From an uncultured Eubacteriales bacterium (GTDB lineage Bacteria > Acidobacteriota > Aminicenantia > Aminicenantales > UBA8522): a stretch of DNA of 64,000 nt. Of the stretch, positions 1,654 to 63,026 are shown one piece after another (the first letter of the stretch is position 1; each line of letters opens with the position of its first letter). The DNA is taken from positions 14,824 through 78,823 of the forward strand of contig CAZOKP010000004.1 in the NCBI GenBank assembly GCA_964580435.1, written 5' to 3'. The notes beneath the pieces were generated by a model, which saw only the letters and a list, made by a program, of their open reading frames with translations, did not search any database and was not told the DNA's origin. A program made the translations under genes and the position numbers.

Positions 1654-4014
1654 ATGAAATGTCCAAAGTGTCAATTTGAAAATACCGAGGATTCGTTTTT
1701 CTGCAAGGAGTGCGGGACCAAACTGCCTCTTTCCGATGGAGTTCTTTATTCCCAGACTAAGACTATTCAAGCCTCTCCGGAAATCCTTGATCCAGGGAGC
1801 CCCGTTGCCGGAAAGTACAAAATCATTTCTGAGATTGGCAGTGGCGGAATGGGCATTGTGTATAAAGCAGAGGACACAAAACTCCGGCGGACTGTCGCCC
1901 TGAAGTTTCTGCCGCCCGAGCTCAGCCGCCATCCCGAAGCTAAGGAACGATTTATGCGGGAGGCGCACACCGTTGCTGCGCTCGATCATCCCCATATCTG
2001 CACGATTTTTGAAGTGGGAGAGTACGAGGACACAGCTTTTATTGCGATGGCCTATGTCGAGGGCCAGAGTCTCAGAGAAAAGGTGGCCAAGCAGCCGCTC
2101 GCTTTTGGGGAGGCGGTGGACATCGCTATTCAGGCAGCGGAAGGCTTGGAAGAAGCCCATAACAAAGGAATTATCCATCGTGATGTCAAGAGCGCGAATA
2201 TCATGATAACGGACAAGGGCCAGGCGAAGATCATGGATTTTGGCTTAGCCAAGGTCATCGGAGAATCGCTGATTACCAAAGAAGCCAAGACCATGGGGAC
2301 AGTGGCCTATATGTCACCGGAGCAGGCCAGAGGTGAGGTTGTTGACCAGCGCTCGGATATTTGGTCCCTGGGGGTCGTCCTCTACGAGATGCTGGCCGGC
2401 CGGCTCCCCTTTCGAGGAGACCACGACCAGTCCGTCATCTTCTCCATCCTTCATCAAGAACCGGAGCCCCTGGCTAAAGCCCGACCCGGCACTGCACCCG
2501 AACTGGAGCATGTCGTCGGACATGCGCTATCCAAGAAGATGGCCGACCGCTACCAGAGCATGGACGAGTTCCGGGAAGACCTCTCCGCCATCGCCGAGGG
2601 CCTTAAACCGCTCAAAGCCAAGGCCAGGCCCGCCGCGATCAAGCTGGCCGTGCTTCCGTTCGCCAACCTGACCGGCAATCCCGAGGAGGATTACCTGAGC
2701 GACGGCCTGACCCAGGAGATGATCGCCCGACTTGGGCGGCTTCATCCCCAGAGTCTCAGCGTCATCGCCCGAACGTCGGTCATGCGCTACAAGAAGACCG
2801 AAGCGCCCGTCGACCAGATCGGCCGCGAGCTCGGCGTGGACTATGTCCTCGAGGGGAGCGCCCAGCGGGAAGGGGGCCGGGTTCGCATCATCGCCGAGCT
2901 CATCCAGGTCCGGGACCAGATCCAGCTCTGGGCGGACATTATCGAGCGGGAGATGTCCGGCATCCTGGCCCTGCAAAACGACGTGGCGGAGAAAGTGGCC
3001 AAGGCCCTGGCCCTGAAGCTCCTCCCGGCCGAGCAGGCGCGTCCGGTCAATCCCGAAGCCTACGAGGCCTATCTCAAAGGCCTTCAGCACAGCTATAAAC
3101 TCCTTCCGGCCGATCTGGACACGGCGCTTCAGTATTTTGAACGGGCCCTTCAGAAGGACCCGGACTACGCGCTGGCCTACTCAGGCATCTCCTTTGTTTG
3201 GGGATGCCGTCAACAGATGGGGCTTACGCCACCGAAAGAGGCCACGCCCAAAGCTAAGGCGGCGGCACAGAGGGCCTTGGCCCTGGATGATACCGTCGCG
3301 GCAGCGCATTACGCGCTGGCGGTCATCATGGCTTGGGGCGATTGGGATTGGACCGGCGCCGAGACGGAGTTCAAGCGCGCCATCGAGCTCGATCCGAACT
3401 TCCCTGACGCGCGGATCTACTACTCGCACGTGTTGAGCATTACGGGGCGGCCTGAGGACGCACTGGCGGAGGTGGAGCGGGCCCTGGAACTGGACCCCTT
3501 CAATTCTCTCTTTCAGAGTCTCGCAGCCGCGGTCTTCCTCTTGGCGCACCGGTACGACGAAGCCATTGCTTATGCCCGCAGCGCGCAGCGAACGAACGCG
3601 GACGATCCCGTCGCTCACAACATCCTCCAGGTATGCTTTTTCATGAAAGGAATGTACGAAGAGGCGTTCGAGGAATGGAAAGCCATGTGGAACACTCCCT
3701 TATACGGCAATCGTGACGTCGCAGAAGCCCTCGATCGGGGGTACGCGGAAGCAGGCTTTGCGGGCGCCATGAGGCAGGCAACGGAGGCGTGGGCCAAAGT
3801 GGTCTATGAACGGGGTGAGCCATGGTACCTCGCGCTGGCTTATGTCATGGCCGAGGACAAGGAGCGCGCCCTGGAGTGGTTAGAGAAAGGCTTCGAGCTG
3901 CACGATGCGAACATGGCTTATCTCGGTTTTCCGGGTTTTGACAGCGTGTGCTCCGAGCCGCGCTTCCAGGAACTGCGGCGCCGGATGAATCTGCCTACAG
4001 AAGAAAAGAAATAA
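1654..4014 (+). CDS. Ser/Thr protein kinase with N-terminal zinc ribbon, TolB-N-like domain and C-terminal TPR repeats
   Basis: CPKCQFEN...CKECG zinc ribbon. Hanks kinase motifs GSGGMGIVYKA, VALKFL, HRDVKSANIM, DFGLAK, SPEQ. The AVLPFANLTGNPEEDYLSDGLTQEMI segment is a TolB-N-like module. The C-terminal part is rich in TPR-like repeats. RBS GGGAGAAAG upstream. Confidence 0.85.
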   Translation: MKCPKCQFENTEDSFFCKECGTKLPLSDGVLYSQTKTIQASPEILDPGSPVAGKYKIISEIGSGGMGIVYKAEDTKLRRTVALKFLPPELSRHPEAKERFMREAHTVAALDHPHICTIFEVGEYEDTAFIAMAYVEGQSLREKVAKQPLAFGEAVDIAIQAAEGLEEAHNKGIIHRDVKSANIMITDKGQAKIMDFGLAKVIGESLITKEAKTMGTVAYMSPEQARGEVVDQRSDIWSLGVVLYEMLAGRLPFRGDHDQSVIFSILHQEPEPLAKARPGTAPELEHVVGHALSKKMADRYQSMDEFREDLSAIAEGLKPLKAKARPAAIKLAVLPFANLTGNPEEDYLSDGLTQEMIARLGRLHPQSLSVIARTSVMRYKKTEAPVDQIGRELGVDYVLEGSAQREGGRVRIIAELIQVRDQIQLWADIIEREMSGILALQNDVAEKVAKALALKLLPAEQARPVNPEAYEAYLKGLQHSYKLLPADLDTALQYFERALQKDPDYALAYSGISFVWGCRQQMGLTPPKEATPKAKAAAQRALALDDTVAAAHYALAVIMAWGDWDWTGAETEFKRAIELDPNFPDARIYYSHVLSITGRPEDALAEVERALELDPFNSLFQSLAAAVFLLAHRYDEAIAYARSAQRTNADDPVAHNILQVCFFMKGMYEEAFEEWKAMWNTPLYGNRDVAEALDRGYAEAGFAGAMRQATEAWAKVVYERGEPWYLALAYVMAEDKERALEWLEKGFELHDANMAYLGFPGFDSVCSEPRFQELRRRMNLPTEEKK

Positions 4015-4027
4015 CAGGAGACGGGCG

Positions 4028-7000
4028 ATGAAGTGTCCCAAATGCCATTCCGATAATCCCGATACGTCCCGGTTTTGCGGAAATTGTGCGGCCCTGCTTG
4101 CACAGGAAGGGCAGCTTTTCGATTCCCTGACGAAGACATTGGCGACGCCTCTTCCTGTCTTATCGAAAGGCAGCCTCATTGCCGGAAAATACCGGATCCT
4201 TGAGGAAATCGGCCAGGGCGGGATGGGGATCGTCTATAAGGCCGAGGATCTGAAGCTCAAGCGCTATGTGGCCCTAAAGTTCCTTCCTCCCCATCTCATG
4301 AACTTGCCCGAGCTCAAGGATAGGTTCCTGATCGAGGCCCAGGCGGCCGCAGCCCTTTCCCACCCGAATATCTGCGTCATCCACGAAGTAAGAGAAAGCG
4401 ACGAAGATCCTTACATTGCGATGGAGTACGTGGAAGGGGAAACGCTCCGGGATAAGATTATGAAAGGGCCCCTAAAGACTGAGGAGGCCCTGACAATCGC
4501 GAGCCAGGTCGCCGCCGGGCTTGGCGAGGCCCACCGCAAGGGCATCATCCACCGGGACATCAAGAGCGCCAACATCATGGTTACTGATAAAGGCCAGGCC
4601 AAGGTCATGGACTTCGGGCTGGCCAAGCTCCGGGGCGGGTCGTCGCTGACGAAGAGCCAGACGACGCTGGGCACGGTCGCCTACATGTCGCCGGAGCAGG
4701 CCCAGGGCGAGGAGGTCGACGGCCGGACGGACCTCTGGTCGCTCGGCGTCGTCCTCTACGAGATGCTTACGGGCGAACTCCCGTTCAAAGGCGACCGGGA
4801 CCTCTCGATCATCCATTCCATCATCCACGAAGATCCGAAGCCGATCAAGGTCCGCAAGCCGCCGGTGCCCGAGGAGTTGCAACTGGTTATCGCCCGGACG
4901 CTCAAGAAGAACCGCAATTCGCGTTACGGCTCTGCCCAGGAAATCCTGAAGGACTTGAGGAAATACGAAGAGGCGGTCCGGGCAGAGGCGGCCGGTGTGT
5001 TTAACCTGCGATCGCTCTTGAAGCGCCTGCGCCGGCCGGTGGTGGCGATTCCCGCAGCCCTGACGTTGGTTGCGATTGCGGCCGCGGCCGTCTGGTTCTT
5101 CAAGCATCAGGCCAAGGTCCGCTGGGCCAGGGAGATCGCCATCCCGGAGATCGAGCGGATGATCGAGGAGAACGACGTGTGGCGGAATCTTGTCGCGCCC
5201 TACCGGCTCGCGGAAAAAGCCGAGGCCATCATCCCGCGCGACGCCAGGCTGGCCGAGCTCTTTTCGAAATGCTCTCTGAACATCAATGTTAAGACAGAGC
5301 CTCCAGGTGCGAAGATTTACATTAAGGATTACGACGCGCCGGAAAGTGAATGGTCCTATCTCGGCGTCTCGCCGATCGAAAAGATCAGACTGCCCATCGG
5401 AGTCTTCAGATGGAAAATTGAAAAAGACGGCTACGAGACCGTTCTGGCCGCATCGTCCAGCTGGGATACGGGAGGTCGTATCGGCAAGCCCGGTTTCGTC
5501 ATTCCCTATGACCTCGTAAGAGTCCTTGATAAGACCGGAAGCGTTCCACCGGGAATGGTGCGGGTCCAAGGTGCAGAAACGGCCATCGGGAAACTGGGTG
5601 ATTTCTACATCGACAGGTATGAGGTCACCAACAGGCAATTCAAGGAGTTCATCGACAAGGGCGGCTATAGAAACAAGGAGTACTGGAAACTCAGTTTCAC
5701 CAAAAGCGGAAAAGATCTGACCTGGGAAGAAGGAATCAAAGAGTTCGTCGATCCGACGGGTCAATCCGGCCCTTCCATATGGCTGGCGGGGGATTATCCC
5801 GAGGGCGGGGGCGATTATCCAGTTTCAGGCATCAGCTGGTACGAGGCCGCGGCGTATGCGGAATGGGCCGGAAAGAGCCTGCCGACGATGGTTCACTGGG
5901 AGATAGCCAGAGGCCAGTACACTCCGATGGTGCGCGTTTTCCAATTGGGGGGCCTCGCCATCTTTGCGCCTTTCAGTAATTTCTCCGGCAATGGCCCCGT
6001 TGCGGTGGGAAGCCTTCCGGGCATTACGCCCTTCGGGGTCTTTGACATGGCGGGGAATGTACGGGAATGGTGCTTGAATGAGACCCCGATGGGTAGACTC
6101 GTCCGAGGCGGCGCCTGGGACGACAATACATACGAATTCGGGAATCGGCGGCAGGCTCCTCCCATGGATCGCTCCGCTAAGAACGGATTTCGGTGTGCTC
6201 TTTATCCCAAGCGAGAGGAGATCCCCGCAGCGGCGTTTCAACTTGAAAAACTCGCGGTGTTCAGGGATTTTTACAAAGAAACGCCGGTTCCGGACCCTGT
6301 TTTTCAGGTTTACAAGGAGCAGTTTTCCTACGACAAGACAGACTTGAGGGCACGCGTCGAATCGCAGCAGGAAAGCCCCGGAGGCTGGATTCGGGAGAAG
6401 ATCACCTTCGACGCCGCCTATGGCGGCGAGCGGGTCATGGCCTATCTCTTTCTTCCCGGCAACGCCTCGCCTCCGTATCAAACTGTGATCTATTTCCCCG
6501 GCAGCGCCTCTCTAACAACAAAATCGAGCGAAGACCTCGAGAACTATTATGAATTCCCGATGTTCCTTTCTTTTATCGTTAAAAACGGCCGGGCTGCCCT
6601 TTATCCTGTCTATAAGGGAACATTCGAGCGCGGAAATCCTGCCTTGATCCCTATCCATATTGGTACCGATACTCATGCCTATACCGAATTCCTGATTCAA
6701 ATCGTCCAAGATTTCAGGAGATGCATCGACTACCTGGAAACGCGGACGGACATCGACAGAAACAGGATTGCCTATTACGGCATGAGTTGGGGCGGGAGAC
6801 TCGGCGCGATCATCCCGGCCGTGGAGGACCGCATCAAAGCAAGTGTCTTAGTGGGAGGCGGCATGGGAGGGCGAGCGAGCCGCCCTGAATCCTCTGTGCT
6901 CAACTATGTGACCCGAGTGAAAATACCGACCCTGATGTTGAACGGCAGGTACGATGCCGGTCTCGAGATAGGCATCAAGCCTATGTTCGACCTGCTTGGA

Positions 7001-7131: not shown

Positions 7132-10100
7132 ATGTCCGTAGAGTGTCCGAAATGCCATTCTGAGAATAACGATAACTCGCGGTTCTGCAGCAACTGCGCC
7201 ACGCCGTTGAGCAAGGCGGGGCTGGAAGGAGTGTCCCTAACCAGAACTCTGGAGACGCCGCTTCAAATCATTTCGAAAGACAGCCTCATTGCCGGAAAAT
7301 ACCGGATCCTTGAGGAAATCGGCCAGGGGGGAATGGGAGTCGTTTACAAAGCCGAGGACATCAAGCTTAAACGTTCGGTGGCTCTGAAATTCCTCCCGCC
7401 GCACCTGATGAACTTGCCCGAGCTCAAGGAGCGGTTCCTGATCGAGGCCCAGGCGGCCGCCGCCCTCTCCCACCCGAATATCTGCGTCATCCATGAGGTC
7501 GGGGAGGCCGAGGACAGGTCCTTTATCGTCATGGAGTACGTGGAGGGGGAGACCCTTCGGGATAAGATCAAAAAAGGGCCCCTAAAGACCGAGGTCGCCC
7601 TCGACATCACGATCCAGATCGCAGCCGGCCTGGGCGAGGCCCACCGCAAGGGCATCATCCACCGGGACATCAAGAGCGCAAACATCATGGTGACGGACAA
7701 AGGCCAGGCCAAGGTCATGGACTTCGGGCTGGCCAAGCTGCGGGGCGGGAGCTCGCTTACCAAGAGCCAGACGACGCTGGGCACGGTGGCCTACATGTCT
7801 CCGGAACAGGCGCAGGGGGGAGAAATCGACCAACGCACCGACATCTGGTCCCTGGGCGTCGTGCTCTACGAGATGCTCATGGGTGAGCTTCCGTTTAAAG
7901 GTGACCGTGACGTCTCGATCATCTACTCGATCGTCCATGAGGAGCCAAAGTCGCTCAAGATCCGGAAGCCTCCCGTCCCTGTGGAGCTGCAGCAGGTCAT
8001 CGCCCGGGCCCTCAAGAAGAACCGGGAAGCCCGCTATGGCTCCGCCGACGAAATGCTGAGAGACCTAAGGGCTTACCAATCCTCCGCACAGCTCGCAGAG
8101 TCCGGGGTCCTGAGCCTAAAGATGATCGGTCGCCGCCTCAGGAAGCCGCGGGTCGCCATTCCCACGGTCGTCGCACTTATTGCCCTGGCTTTTCTCGGCA
8201 CCATGTTTTTCAAGCACCAGGCCCAGGTCCGCTGGGCCAGGCAGGTGGCTCTTCCGGAGATTCAGAGGCTTATCGAGGGAAATGACTGTTGGCGCAATCT
8301 CATACCCGTCTATAAACTCGCGGAAAAGGCGGAAGCTTACATTCCGCACGATCCCAAGCTGGCCGGGCTTTTTTCGAAATGCTCCTTGAAGGTCAACATC
8401 AAAACCGAACCTCCCGGCGCCAAGATCTTTATGAAAGAATACATGGCCCCGGAGAGCGATTGGACGTATCTCGGAGTTTCGCCGATCGAAAAGATCCGGC
8501 TGCCCATCGGGGTTTTCAGATGGAAAATCGAAAAAGACGGCTATGAGACGGTTCTGGCGGCCGCTTCCACCTGGAATGGAGATATTGTGAGTCCTGAGAT
8601 TATTGTTCCCTATGATATTGTGAGAATCCTGGACAATAAGGAAAACATTCCGCCGGGCATGGTGCGGGTCACGGGAGCGGAAACGGCTGACGGCAAGCTG
8701 GATGATTTTCTTATCGATACTTATGAAGTGACGAATAAGCAATATAAGGAATTCGTCAACGGCAGCGGATACAGGAACAAGAAATACTGGACGCAGAAAT
8801 TCGTCAAGGACGGAAGAGAGCTGACCTGGGAGGACGCGGTCAAGGGATTCGTCGACCAAACGGGGCTTCCCGGCCCGGCCGGATGGCAGGCAGGAGATTA
8901 TCCCGAAGGACAGGCAGATTATCCGGTGTCGGGAATCAGTTGGTACGAGGCGGCGGCCTATGCGGAATTCTCCGGGAAAAGCCTGCCGACGGGAAATCAT
9001 TGGGGGATCGCGAGGGGCGAATATACGCCGATGATTCAATATCCGCAGCTCGGGGGTTTCGCCCTTTTAGCTCCTTTCAGCAATTTTCTGGGGAAGGGCC
9101 CGGTTGCCGTAGGGAGTCTCCCGGGGGTAACGGCCTACGGGGCTTTTGACATGGCCGGGAACGTGAGGGAATGGTGCTGGAACAAAACTCCGAAAGGACG
9201 TGTCATCAGGGGCGGCGCCTGGGGAGAGAACACCTACATGTTCGACAATATGAGTCAAGCGCCGGCCATGGACCGTTCCGCCAAGAACGGGTTCCGTTGC
9301 GCCCTTTATTTTGAGCCGGAGAAAATCCCAGGGTCGGCGTTTCAAATGGTCAAGTCCTTGGGCCTTCCCCTGATAGGTGAAACGGAAGATTTCGCCAAGC
9401 AAGAACCGGTCCCCGATTCCATTTTTCAGGTCTACAAAGAACAGTTTTCGTACGATAAAACCGATTTGAAGGCCCGCGTGGAATCGAAGAAGGAAAGCCC
9501 CGAATGGACTCTGGAAAAGATCAGTTTTGAGGCCGCCTACGGCGGCGAACGGATCATGGCCTATCTTTTTCTTCCCAAGAACGCTGTGCCGCCCTATCAG
9601 TCCGTCATCTATATGGGCGGCGACGCTCCCGTGTTTCAGCGGTCGAGCCAGGACATCGAGACCTATTATGAAGTCCCCATGTTCTTTTCTTTTCTCGTCA
9701 AAAACGGACGGGCGGTCCTCTATCCCGTCTATAAGGGATTCTTCGAGCGCGGGAATGATGCCTTGATTTCTATCATCGAGGGCAGCTGGGCTTCCGTGCA
9801 GTGGAAAGAAGTCTTCATTCAACAGGTCAAGGACCTCAGAAGAGGCATCGACTATCTAGAAACCCGCCCGGATATCGACAGCCGGAAGCTCGCCTTTGAG
9901 GGAATGAGCTACGGATCGGGACTCGCGCCCGTCATCCTGGCCGTGGAGGAGCGCCTCAAGGTCGACGTTCTTTTGGCCGGAGGCTTCGGCCTCATGGGAG
10001 AGGGACGCCCCGAAGTGAATCAAATCAACTATGTCACCCGGGTGAAAACACCCACCCTGATGTTGAACGGCAAATACGACTCGTTTTTTCCGCCCGAGAC

Positions 10101-28552: not shown

Positions 28553-28559
28553 CCTTGCG

Positions 28560-28648
28560 GAGGGATGGCCGAGTGGCTGAAGGCGGCGGTCTTGAAAACC
28601 GCTTTCCGGTTCTCCGGAACGGGGGTTCGAATCCCTCTCCCTCCGCCA
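28560..28648 (+). tRNA. tRNA-Ser (anticodon UGA), long variable arm
   Basis: Acceptor stem GGAGGGA/TCCCTCC, U8, D-arm GCC...GGC, anticodon stem GCGGT/ACCGC with loop CTTGAAA (anticodon TGA), long variable arm, T-loop GGTTCGAATCC, discriminator G, encoded CCA. 7 nt after the serS stop. Confidence 0.85.
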
Positions 28649-28728: not shown

Positions 28729-28823
<95 letters not shown>

Positions 28824-41527: not shown

Positions 41528-41651
41528 TGAGTTTTCATTGTTAATAAGATACTTACCGCTCAGTCGAATCCCAAGATCACCAAAAAAAATTATTGCTATC
41601 GATAGGTAAGGTATTTTCAAAAGGTAAGCACTAATCAGAGCATCAGCCAAT

Positions 41652-41780
41652 GGGTGGCGCGGCTGGGGGGCCCCCCGACGCCCGGAGCGTTTGATGCCTC
41701 CGGAATTTCTGTTGTGTAATCAACAGAATAGGCCGCGAGGATGTCGGGGGGATGCCGCGACAGGACCCGTTGGCGCGCCC
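41652..41780 (+). other. conserved GC-rich upstream element, copy A (candidate cis-regulatory DNA site or structured leader RNA)
   Basis: GGGTGGCGCGGCTGGGGGGCCCCCCGACGCCCGGAGCGTTTGATGCC...CCGCGAGGATGTCGGGGGGATGCCGCGACAGGACCCG aligns block-by-block with 62813-62940. Begins 216 nt before the ATG at 41868. A TTGACT at 41806 with TAGCAT 17 nt downstream follows the element. Confidence 0.5.
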
Positions 41781-41867
41781 TATTGGCAATCTTAGACCGA
41801 ATCGTTTGACTATCCCGCTCAATCATACTAGCATTATCGGGTGCGAAAACTTGTGTGAGGAATTTCC

Positions 41868-62505: not shown

Positions 62506-62812
62506 GCTTTTCCTCCCTTAAGAATATTTCCGGCTCTGATCCTGGTGCCGTTATCTCTGGTCAAGCCCGCTGCTTTGATCATTCTTCGATTTAAGCATAT
62601 ATATAACAGATTAGGTCAAAAAGTCAAAGCGATTCACCTCCTTTTCGTATCCTATTTAGTCGCTCCTGACTTCCAGGTTTCCTGCGGCTCTCTGGATGAG
62701 GATGGGCGCAGGGGGCAGATGACGTAACAGCCCAGGATCTTTCCTGTTTTTTTCTCGACGATGATCGGAAGCATTTCCAATTCCGTGATAGTCCTATGCT
62801 GATAGAAGGGGA

Positions 62813-62940
62813 GGGTGGCGTGGTTCGGGGCCCCCCGCCACCCCGAGCGTTTGACGCCCCGGCCTTTGGCTCTGGAAACAACATGATTGACCGCAAGGGC
62901 GCCGGGGGTGAACCGCGACAGGACCCGCTCCCATCGCGGA
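62813..62940 (+). other. conserved GC-rich upstream element, copy B
   Basis: GGGTGGCGTGGTTCGGGGCCCCCCGCCACCCCGAGCGTTTGACGCC...CCGCAAGGGCGCCGGGGGTGAACCGCGACAGGACCCG. Begins 214 nt before the ATG at 63027. Followed by TTGACA (62973), a 17-nt spacer, then TAAGAT (62996). Confidence 0.5.
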
Positions 62941-63026
62941 AATAAAGGTGCAATCATGATGATCTCGACGAATTGACATAAATATGAACTTTTTTTAAGA
63001 TTTGGCATCGACAAAGGAGGATGATC

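Follow-up and report, generated by a model that had tools for sequence, protein, structure and literature searches.

What kind of sequence stands twice, in the same orientation and at nearly the same distance, upstream of two otherwise unrelated genes of an uncultured bacterium of the Aminicenantia? The question is raised by a stretch of 64,000 nucleotides of contig CAZOKP010000004.1 (assembly GCA_964580435.1, positions 14,824 to 78,823 of the forward strand; hereafter, the window), in which a sequence-only reading had pointed to two GC-rich intergenic segments, 41652-41780 (copy A) and 62813-62940 (copy B), and had proposed a regulatory device shared by the secreted-protein genes that follow them. 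The analysis described here leads to a different answer: the GC-rich core of each segment is very probably (we would put it at about 85%) the interior of a small non-autonomous element of about 190-230 bp, similar to a MITE (miniature inverted-repeat transposable element) and specific to Candidatus Aminicenantes. With high confidence, it is neither a regulator common to secreted-protein genes nor a 5′ leader.

Both segments are present at these positions and lie on one strand, and their two-block layout around a variable hairpin holds in an alignment of copies A and B (column identity 76%, about 250 columns). The first block reads GGGTGGCGYGGYT..GGGGCCCCCCG..GAGCGTTTGAYGCC and the second CCGCRAGG..CGGGGG..CCGCGACAGGACCCG; each exact block occurs at two places only in the window, namely copies A and B, and a scan of the window with a covariance model returns the same two copies and nothing else (126.5 and 110.5 bits, respectively). 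Together with the recurrence of the sequence in genomes and metagenomes, this contradicts a chance similarity of GC-rich DNA. The G6C6 palindrome first described for both copies exists in copy A, whereas copy B has G4C6 only. Furthermore, the limits had to be corrected. The core of copy A, GGGTGGCG...GAGCGTTTGATGCC...variable hairpin...CCGCGAGG...CCGCGACAGGACCC, extends from 41652 to 41768 (model match 41643-41777) and that of copy B from 62813 to 62926 (model match 62804-62935), both on the + strand. Pairing reaches beyond the interval initially delimited, through an outer helix (P0) formed by GCCAA (41646-41650) and TTGGC (41770-41774) in copy A, and by GGGAG and CTCCC in copy B; a longer repeat encloses each core, at about 41570-41792 and at 62767-62955.

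A repeat family with inverted arms and target-site duplications

Whether more copies exist elsewhere, a point raised along with the first description, can be answered in the affirmative, as related genomes and metagenomes carry the family. A search for exact GAGCGTTTGA, followed after 42-72 nt by GCGACAGGACCC, matched 37 loci in about 10 metagenome-assembled genomes (MAGs) of the genome collection, most of them labelled Candidatus Aminicenantes and with 3-7 matches per MAG, and at least 120 metagenome loci. Among the matches listed, 164 copies occupy 140 distinct sites when loci with the same flanks are merged, and the hosts are essentially all Candidatus Aminicenantes MAGs and sediment metagenomes (the genome and metagenome loci compared are labelled L001-L160). 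The idea of a device of secreted-protein genes fails here, since these roughly 140 sites adjoin unrelated genes; those found downstream at other loci encode GcvH, GcvT, SMC, an aminoacyl-tRNA synthetase, UppP, TatA, an ABC ATPase and others. What stands of the claim of a shared, non-random and recurring element is the similarity itself, which is real and found in related genomes, but not its gene-linked regulatory interpretation.

An alignment of 30 full elements shows that conservation runs well past the segments first delimited, into longer flanks. The commonest layout begins with a left arm CCCAAAATTGCCGATAG, followed by about 75 moderately conserved nucleotides with a hairpin, CACCCGA, one variable nucleotide and the core GGGTGGCG...GGACCC; then come a G, TCGGGTG, about 4 nt and the right arm CTATCGGCAATTTTGGG, the reverse complement of the left one. 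Across the family these terminal inverted repeats are imperfect, CCCAAAATTGCCGATAG...CTATCGGCAATTTTGGG being their commonest form, and whole elements measure 190-230 bp. The two window copies represent rarer subtypes whose arms are diverged yet recognisably related. Copy A (whole element 41570-41792, + strand) has a degenerate left arm, CCCAAGATCACC..ATTGCTATCGATAGG, and a right arm CCTATTGGCAATCT; its left boundary is approximate and its right one is set by an empty orthologous site (see below). Copy B (62767-62955, + strand) begins with GGAAGCATTTCCAATTCCGTGATAG and ends with ATCGCGGAAATAAAGGTGCAATC, imperfect inverted repeats that pair on the + strand, G-U pairs included; in the subtype alignment, the arms of subtype B are GGAAGCATYTCCAATTCCGTGAT and ATCACGGAAATAGAGATGCAATC. 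A protein-coding core was ruled out: cores measure 115-119 nt, and differences of 1-4 nt between them throw the reading frame out of register, the open frames being an artefact of GC content. Seven loci (L082, L077, L042, L085, L118, L136 and L121) hold two or three copies within 8-14 kb, more than expected from some 3-7 copies per genome, which suggests local hopping or preferred regions.

The flanks of the copies bear the traces of insertion. The longest word common to left and right flanks has a mean length of 5.7 nt, against 3.8 nt in mismatched flank pairs, a value that none of 5000 permutations reaches, and the excess was found again on 52 sites. These direct repeats differ from site to site, and when the flanks are compared along the diagonals, position by position, a duplication of about 6 bp is seen immediately next to the CCC/GGG tips. 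Duplication length depends on the subtype: it is about 6 bp in the commonest one and 9-10 bp in those of the window, and copies of subtype B with 9-bp duplications occur in L120, L099, L071, L092, L081 and L159. Copy B itself lies between ACGATGATC (62758-62766) and ATGATGATC (62956-62964), two 9-bp repeats identical at 8 of 9 positions, both read on the + strand. A terminator-like hairpin with a T-run (CAGGATCTTTCCTG TTTTTTTCTC; 62733-62756, + strand) is seen just 5′ of this copy; the gap between this hairpin and the next -35 box measured only about 18 nt before insertion.

At copy A, on the + strand, the left duplication CAGTCGAAT (41561-41569) is diverged and the right one, TAGACCGAAT (41793-41802), marks the point where native sequence restarts. 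The gene that follows, outside the element, encodes a protein with DUF3857 and transglutaminase-core domains (PF12969, PF01841; 41868-43835, + strand), the named relatives of which are from Aminicenantes, which places the window in that phylum. One of its orthologs, 85% identical and located in L158, has the same upstream gene and a 72-nt spacer from which the element is absent: a single TAGACCGAAT is kept there, followed by TTGACT-17-TAGCAT, and the covariance model detects no copy. The site of a 74% ortholog (L160) is also empty. A third ortholog (83%, L159) holds instead a copy of subtype B (113.9 bits) with its own 9-bp duplication, CTCCG(A/G)TCT, which stops 6 nt short of that -35 box; since this copy belongs to another subtype and has its own duplication, one promoter has been struck independently by two subtypes. 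Further occupied and empty counterparts are L095/L123 and L053/L122, again with the promoter already in the empty locus, so that the promoter pre-exists in the empty site at three such pairs, copy A included.

Other comparisons did not lend themselves to this use. The orthologs of the gene that follows copy B belong to a BNR/Sortilin family too paralogous for safe orthology. The pair L079/L040 was set aside because it reflects a larger deletion and offers no clean empty site: compared with L079 (about 8270-8560), L040 (about 4200-4320) has neither the element nor the two flanking TTGAC boxes, a deletion between A-runs is apparent, and two divergent promoters with extended -10 motifs (TGnTATAAT) remain. 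At another site, a canonical copy in L035 (7141-7406) has as its counterpart, in L056 and L126, a variant with an insertion; the cores are only 78% identical, the right flank is 95% identical and the left one aligns poorly (about 50%), which points to replacement, to conversion between copies or to repeated insertion.

Altogether, terminal inverted repeats, site-specific duplications, small size, lack of coding capacity and presence or absence at orthologous loci are the features of a MITE. Mobilisation would presumably occur in trans, by a transposase recognising the arms.

Insertion beside promoters

The sequence-only reading had placed both copies 216 and 214 nt before start codons, which is exact for A and B, respectively, and had seen a TTGAC hexamer at equivalent positions after each. 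The hexamers do exist, each as part of a complete -35/-10 match on the + strand. They are TTGACT-17-TAGCAT (41806-41834) after copy A, the promoter kept in the empty ortholog L158, and TTGACA-17-TAAGAT (62973-63001) after copy B, the sigma-70-like promoter of a gene with BNR/Sortilin repeats (PF02012, PF15902). Their positions are similar but not identical, 37 and 46 nt past the respective cores. Copy B fits the geometry of the family, its duplication being separated from the -35 box by 8 nt; in copy A the distance is 4-5 nt shorter, as the usual terminal TGGG is missing from the right arm. Given the arms, the duplications and the empty site of L158, the fixed spacing to TTGAC and start codon stems from insertion of a mobile element at that place.

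As the predicted -35/-10 pair follows the element, the latter lies 5′ of the promoter and outside the 5′ leader. That the downstream mRNA has in it a riboswitch-like leader, or one acting in cis by other means, is thus hardly credible, although this idea could draw on the conserved fold and on the strand mostly shared with the downstream gene: the promoter is 3′ of the element in copies A and B and throughout the family, the predicted 5′ untranslated regions measure only about 20-30 nt, no Rfam family is matched, the downstream genes are unrelated, and the element is absent in orthologs. Of the earlier suggestion of a structured 5′ leader or small RNA, therefore, the leader has to be abandoned, whereas the structured RNA is compatible with a conserved fold with compensatory changes, described in the next section.

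The relation to promoters extends to the whole family. When representatives of the 140 sites were scanned with the criteria of the promoter tool used on the window, the -35 hexamer began 20-21 nt after the arm GGCAA in 27 of 45 right-side promoter matches, the left side being the mirror image. Of 85 right flanks, 19 have exact TTGAC at offsets 20-21, compared with some 0.09 per offset in other positions. With both sides pooled, TTGNC or TTGAN occupies offsets 19-22 in 58 of 162 flanks, and TAnnnT stands 17 nt further on, often with the G of an extended -10, and to judge from their sequence these matches look like real promoters. The hexamer is mostly one-sided (8 cases on the left only, 9 on the right only and 1 on both), which rules out a two-sided palindromic target of the type TGTCAA-N20-TTGACA; likewise, a mimicry of the arm going past TTGAC, with ATAG after the hexamer, gave no signal.

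Tandem copies provide another view of the target. Two neighbouring elements share a single 6-nt spacer, which is the duplication, as in L151 (...GGCAATTTTGGG-AACGAC-CCCGAAATTGCC...GGG-AACGAC); the tandem of L121 resembles it, and in L051 the next arm starts about 15 nt past the tip. In L151 and L121 the TTGCC of the neighbour's arm sits at the offset otherwise occupied by the TTGAC of a promoter. Insertion would be strongly position-specific, a -35 box of the form TTGAC(A) following the joint after a few bp, and the transposase may select targets beside a half-site, TTG(A/C)C, similar to the arm it recognises.

Could such a distance arise without any targeting, simply because insertions that fall at random survive nowhere but in the small neutral interval between a terminator or gene on the 5′ side and the -35 box? 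Intergenic gaps are indeed short, as at copy B before insertion, and insertions inside genes would be purged. Survivorship of this kind would, however, leave a boundary with a tail and not a spike at two adjacent offsets; moreover, the offset is the same to the left and to the right of the element, it recurs with respect to the neighbour's arm in tandem copies, and one promoter was hit independently by two subtypes. The spike is too sharp for survivorship alone, which we hold to be improbable as the explanation.

In turn, the constant position 5′ of the -35 box could be read as that of an upstream site for a dimeric regulator of the adjacent promoter, in a regulon of secreted-protein genes, and the GC palindromes GGGGGCCCCCC and GGCGCC within the core would suit such a protein. 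The site contexts lend it a further argument: at the 80 sites with both neighbours called, and apart from those between divergent genes, 31 copies are in co-oriented tandem contexts, 15 in opposite-oriented ones and 6 between convergent genes, an orientation bias of about 2:1 toward the promoter in tandem contexts. Nevertheless, opposite orientations and convergent positions do occur, the downstream genes are functionally unrelated, housekeeping ones among others, the ortholog in L158 has the same promoter without the element, and elements devoid of core stand at the same distance, meaning that the spacing comes from the arms. The regulon is thereby largely refuted, and we consider it very unlikely. 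A protein might still bind the core 5′ of the promoter, but none of the observations indicates this.

The latter elements show where the targeting resides. Several elements with the same arms have altered interiors: L104 has no core, L009 a different one, L085 no inner domain and L069 insertions of about 400 nt. Since L104 and L009 keep the usual 13-nt spacing to TTGAC (the copy of L085 is not an exact fit), targeting would belong to the arms, with the core as cargo.

The conserved core and its fold

The cargo is unusually constant. In same-site pairs the core is 89% identical and the arms 77%; it stays conserved across subtypes whose arms have diverged and is nearly invariant across differing insertion targets. 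The alternative that has to be weighed most seriously is that the core constitutes by itself a gene for a structured small RNA, or an RNA domain, read from the + strand, endowed with a trans-acting role for the element or the host and merely carried by mobile arms. This overlaps with the mobile-element explanation and differs from it on whether the core works as RNA; the conservation just described speaks in its favour.

RNAalifold, applied to 31 copies, gives a fold of nested parts: an outer helix P0/P1, an internal loop GG/ACAGG, a helix P2 (CGYGGUUC/GAACCGCG) and a GC-rich rod (CCCCCC.../...GGGGG), beyond which lies an apical hairpin. Most copies have CACCCGA/TCGGGTG as P0, but copy B has GGGAG/CTCCC and L025 has GAGGC/GCCTC. 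In 106 copies aligned to the model, 94.9% of the cells are paired against 90.1% in shuffles, double-change cells number 129 against 33, and none of 500 shuffles reaches the observed values. Changes on both sides affect seven pairs of P0/P1 and three of P2, for example U-A replaced by C-G (14 rows) or G-C by A-U (3 rows), and such compensation favours a small RNA. The same holds for the tandem G.A/A.G of CCCGAGCG/CGCGAGGG, which becomes Watson-Crick CGCTCGGG in 5 of 31 copies (L005, L006, L017, L027 and L036). Furthermore, G-U cells in P1-P3 outnumber A-C cells by 108 to 9, one P2 pair being U.G in 67 of 105 rows, and the + strand folds better than the - strand by 2.7 kcal/mol on average and is the more stable one in 93 of 134 copies; because of this G-U excess and stability, it is the fold of the + strand that would be relevant if a single-stranded form matters. 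Invariant unpaired stretches (GAGCGUUUGA, ACAGG) are found in the core family, and optional helical insertions occur at fixed points of the core in L001, L010, L012, L031 and L069, as in many large RNAs.

Against a small RNA of this kind count the inner helices, 3 to 5, which never covary and, being invariant, are uninformative on the fold, as well as the existence of coreless elements and of one copy without the inner domain; the absence of signals for its transcription and many of the site contexts, considered below, argue in the same direction. We would grant it somewhat less than an even chance. That the core acts in some way as a structured RNA from the + strand is our best guess.

No known family could be attached to this fold, as had been claimed at the outset. 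At the gathering threshold, the only Rfam matches of the whole window are two tRNA genes with long variable arms (28559-28645 and 28729-28819, + strand), and at E<=10 or E<=1 both window copies, a canonical copy, an insertion variant and a giant variant returned noise only. An HDV-like (hepatitis delta virus-like) double-pseudoknot ribozyme was suggested by the pairing of GGGTGGCG with CGCC(G)ACCC after a G/C-rich hairpin; inspection of the alignment ruled it out, as the A/C variation of the partner is uncompensated, a J4/2 segment is missing and the competing P0/P1 covaries. A kink-turn at the GG/ACAGG internal loop was likewise rejected upon inspection, its tandem G.A signature being misplaced.

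Promoter-like motifs inside the element were not confirmed as family features either. The core contains TTGATG (from GCGTTTGATGCC) and, after 18 nt, GATAAT, the latter being TGTAAT in copy A (41691-41730); the pair is present in 12 of the 39 first copies scanned, subtype B has GGAAAC, and it is probably incidental. In the left arm, TTGNNN-17-GATAGG is without the -7 T and was not picked up by the scan.

The altered interiors deserve description in their own right. In L104 (2758-2873) the arms, the left-arm sequence and the P0 stem are kept, and CGGGCCC alone replaces the 117-nt core; in L085 (10879-11026) P1 and P2 are kept and everything between two GGGGG runs is lost. These minimal elements could be either progenitors or deletion derivatives. 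The interior of L009 (2826-3035) consists of a palindromic repeat of the GTCATCGCGAGGAGCGAAGCGACGTGGCGATC type between the same arms, and this element directly abuts a core-carrying copy. At the other extreme, the giant element of L069 (153-684, about 530 bp) has the same arms and a core with an insertion of about 107 nt and a greatly expanded apical region, with no Rfam match. An insertion of this length defines a subfamily: CCCCGCCGAC is missing from its core, and its place is taken by about 107 nt closed by a 9-bp stem, CGAGACGCT...AGCGTCTCG, and containing a CCCCTCTTA...TAAGAGGGG hairpin, also without Rfam match; it is found in L001 (about 4300-4420), L010 (about 930-1040), L012 and L031, with low-scoring model matches in L056, L065, L111, L112 and L116. 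Since different loci in different MAGs carry it, the insertion variant itself has spread. Lastly, in L021 (about 2640-3000) and L034 (about 1090-1400) imperfect direct repeats of about 55 nt (GGGGGATRAGRCGAG...GCAGAAGGCCGTCCGGAGGCGGAGCGGGCAC) take the place of the usual inverted arms on the two sides of the core.

Several observations weigh against a promoter-directed mobile element with an RNA inside. With regard to mobility, the duplication is not uniform in length (about 6, 9 and about 10 bp in three subtypes), the G/C-rich tips of the commonest subtype make its ends hard to delimit, and copy A has a degenerate left boundary. A transposase or an autonomous partner with the same arms was not found in about 1.1 Mb of loci: lone long arm pairs are absent from the collected loci, the open reading frames near lone arms in L121 and L136 offer no autonomous partner, no recurrent protein family resembling a transposase is seen among the neighbours of the element, and an arm scan of viral contigs gave chance matches only. 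As for targeting, a promoter can be recognised at the fixed offset in only about 36% of the flanks. Regarding the RNA, the left arm contains no consistent sigma-70-like promoter, the type that the scan covers, no terminator-like site follows the core, and 28 of the 80 sites lie between divergent genes, where the neighbours would not transcribe the + strand. Moreover, the copies are related, so that the statistics of covariation and orientation overstate their independence, the alignment of 106 copies used for covariation was fitted to the model, and the complementarity of P0 could be that of inherited inverted-repeat DNA instead of a product of selection on RNA.

The most far-reaching interpretation combines both properties. 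The family would home to about -45 to -50 of sigma-70 promoters, through a TTGAC(A) that mimics the TTGCC of its own arm, and would carry an uncatalogued structured RNA of about 120 nt with a new function. In this complete form we regard it as tentative and, on balance, unlikely.

Relation to known elements and meaning

In many respects, the family resembles bacterial MITEs such as the Correia elements (CREE/NEMIS) of Neisseria, ERIC, RUP and MITEAba12. These are small (about 100-300 bp) and non-coding, with inverted repeats and duplications, they occupy several unrelated intergenic sites, often beside promoters, they form long hairpins if transcribed, and they are present or absent between related genomes. 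In contrast to them, and as far as a comparison by description goes, here conservation is higher in the interior than in the arms, the interior folds into a branched structure with covariation, the target is a fixed distance 5′ of -35 boxes and not a short word like TA, and the copy number is low, with about 3-7 exact-pattern copies per MAG. REP, BIME and REPIN elements, palindromes of 20-40 nt usually found at gene 3′ ends in high copy number, were ruled out, as the present unit measures 190-230 bp, is low in copy number and lies mostly 5′ of promoters.

The choice of target has parallels as well. Insertion sequences (IS) of the IS30 and IS911/IS3 types use target sequences resembling their own ends, and fixed genomic features are targeted by REP-targeting IS and, upstream of genes transcribed by RNA polymerase III, by Ty3 and Ty1. 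The likeness consists in the fixed distance from a short motif, in tandem head-to-tail copies with a duplication-sized spacer (L151) and in a "safe site" logic, by which insertion just outside the promoter spares genes. Here, unlike in those systems, the motif coincides with the sigma-70 -35 box, and the mechanism is deduced from sequence geometry alone. In the literature, we found no described bacterial element with an insertion preference for the sigma-70 -35 box.

A conserved, structured non-coding module inside a mobile element also recalls the bridge and seek RNAs of IS110/IS1111, the omega RNAs of IS200/IS605 and the IStrons. Bridge, seek and omega RNAs adjoin a recombinase, TnpB or IS gene and have guide loops that vary with the target, and the IS110/IS1111 and IS200/IS605 elements are devoid of classical inverted-repeat arms with 6-9-bp duplications. 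The present family, on the contrary, has such arms and duplications, no recurrent neighbouring protein and a core that is near-invariant over targets; it has neither the hallmarks of an IS110 bridge RNA nor those of an IS200/IS605 omega RNA, nor does it match Rfam.

For annotation, the consequence is that the roughly 120 nt conserved upstream of two secreted-protein genes are to be seen as a lineage-specific mobile repeat and not as a shared regulator. What goes beyond an ordinary MITE is the sharp promoter-proximal position, together with a core that is conserved, covaries and has not been catalogued. Provided that the targeting is real, bacteria would have an equivalent of the "safe haven" integration known near promoters, and promoters might gain new upstream sequence in this way; homing of this kind would be a "safe-site" strategy of which, among bacterial DNA transposons, no description is known. 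Should the core be an RNA, it would represent a new RNA class from an uncultured phylum, acting perhaps as a cofactor or regulator of transposition, or else as an RNA directed at the host.

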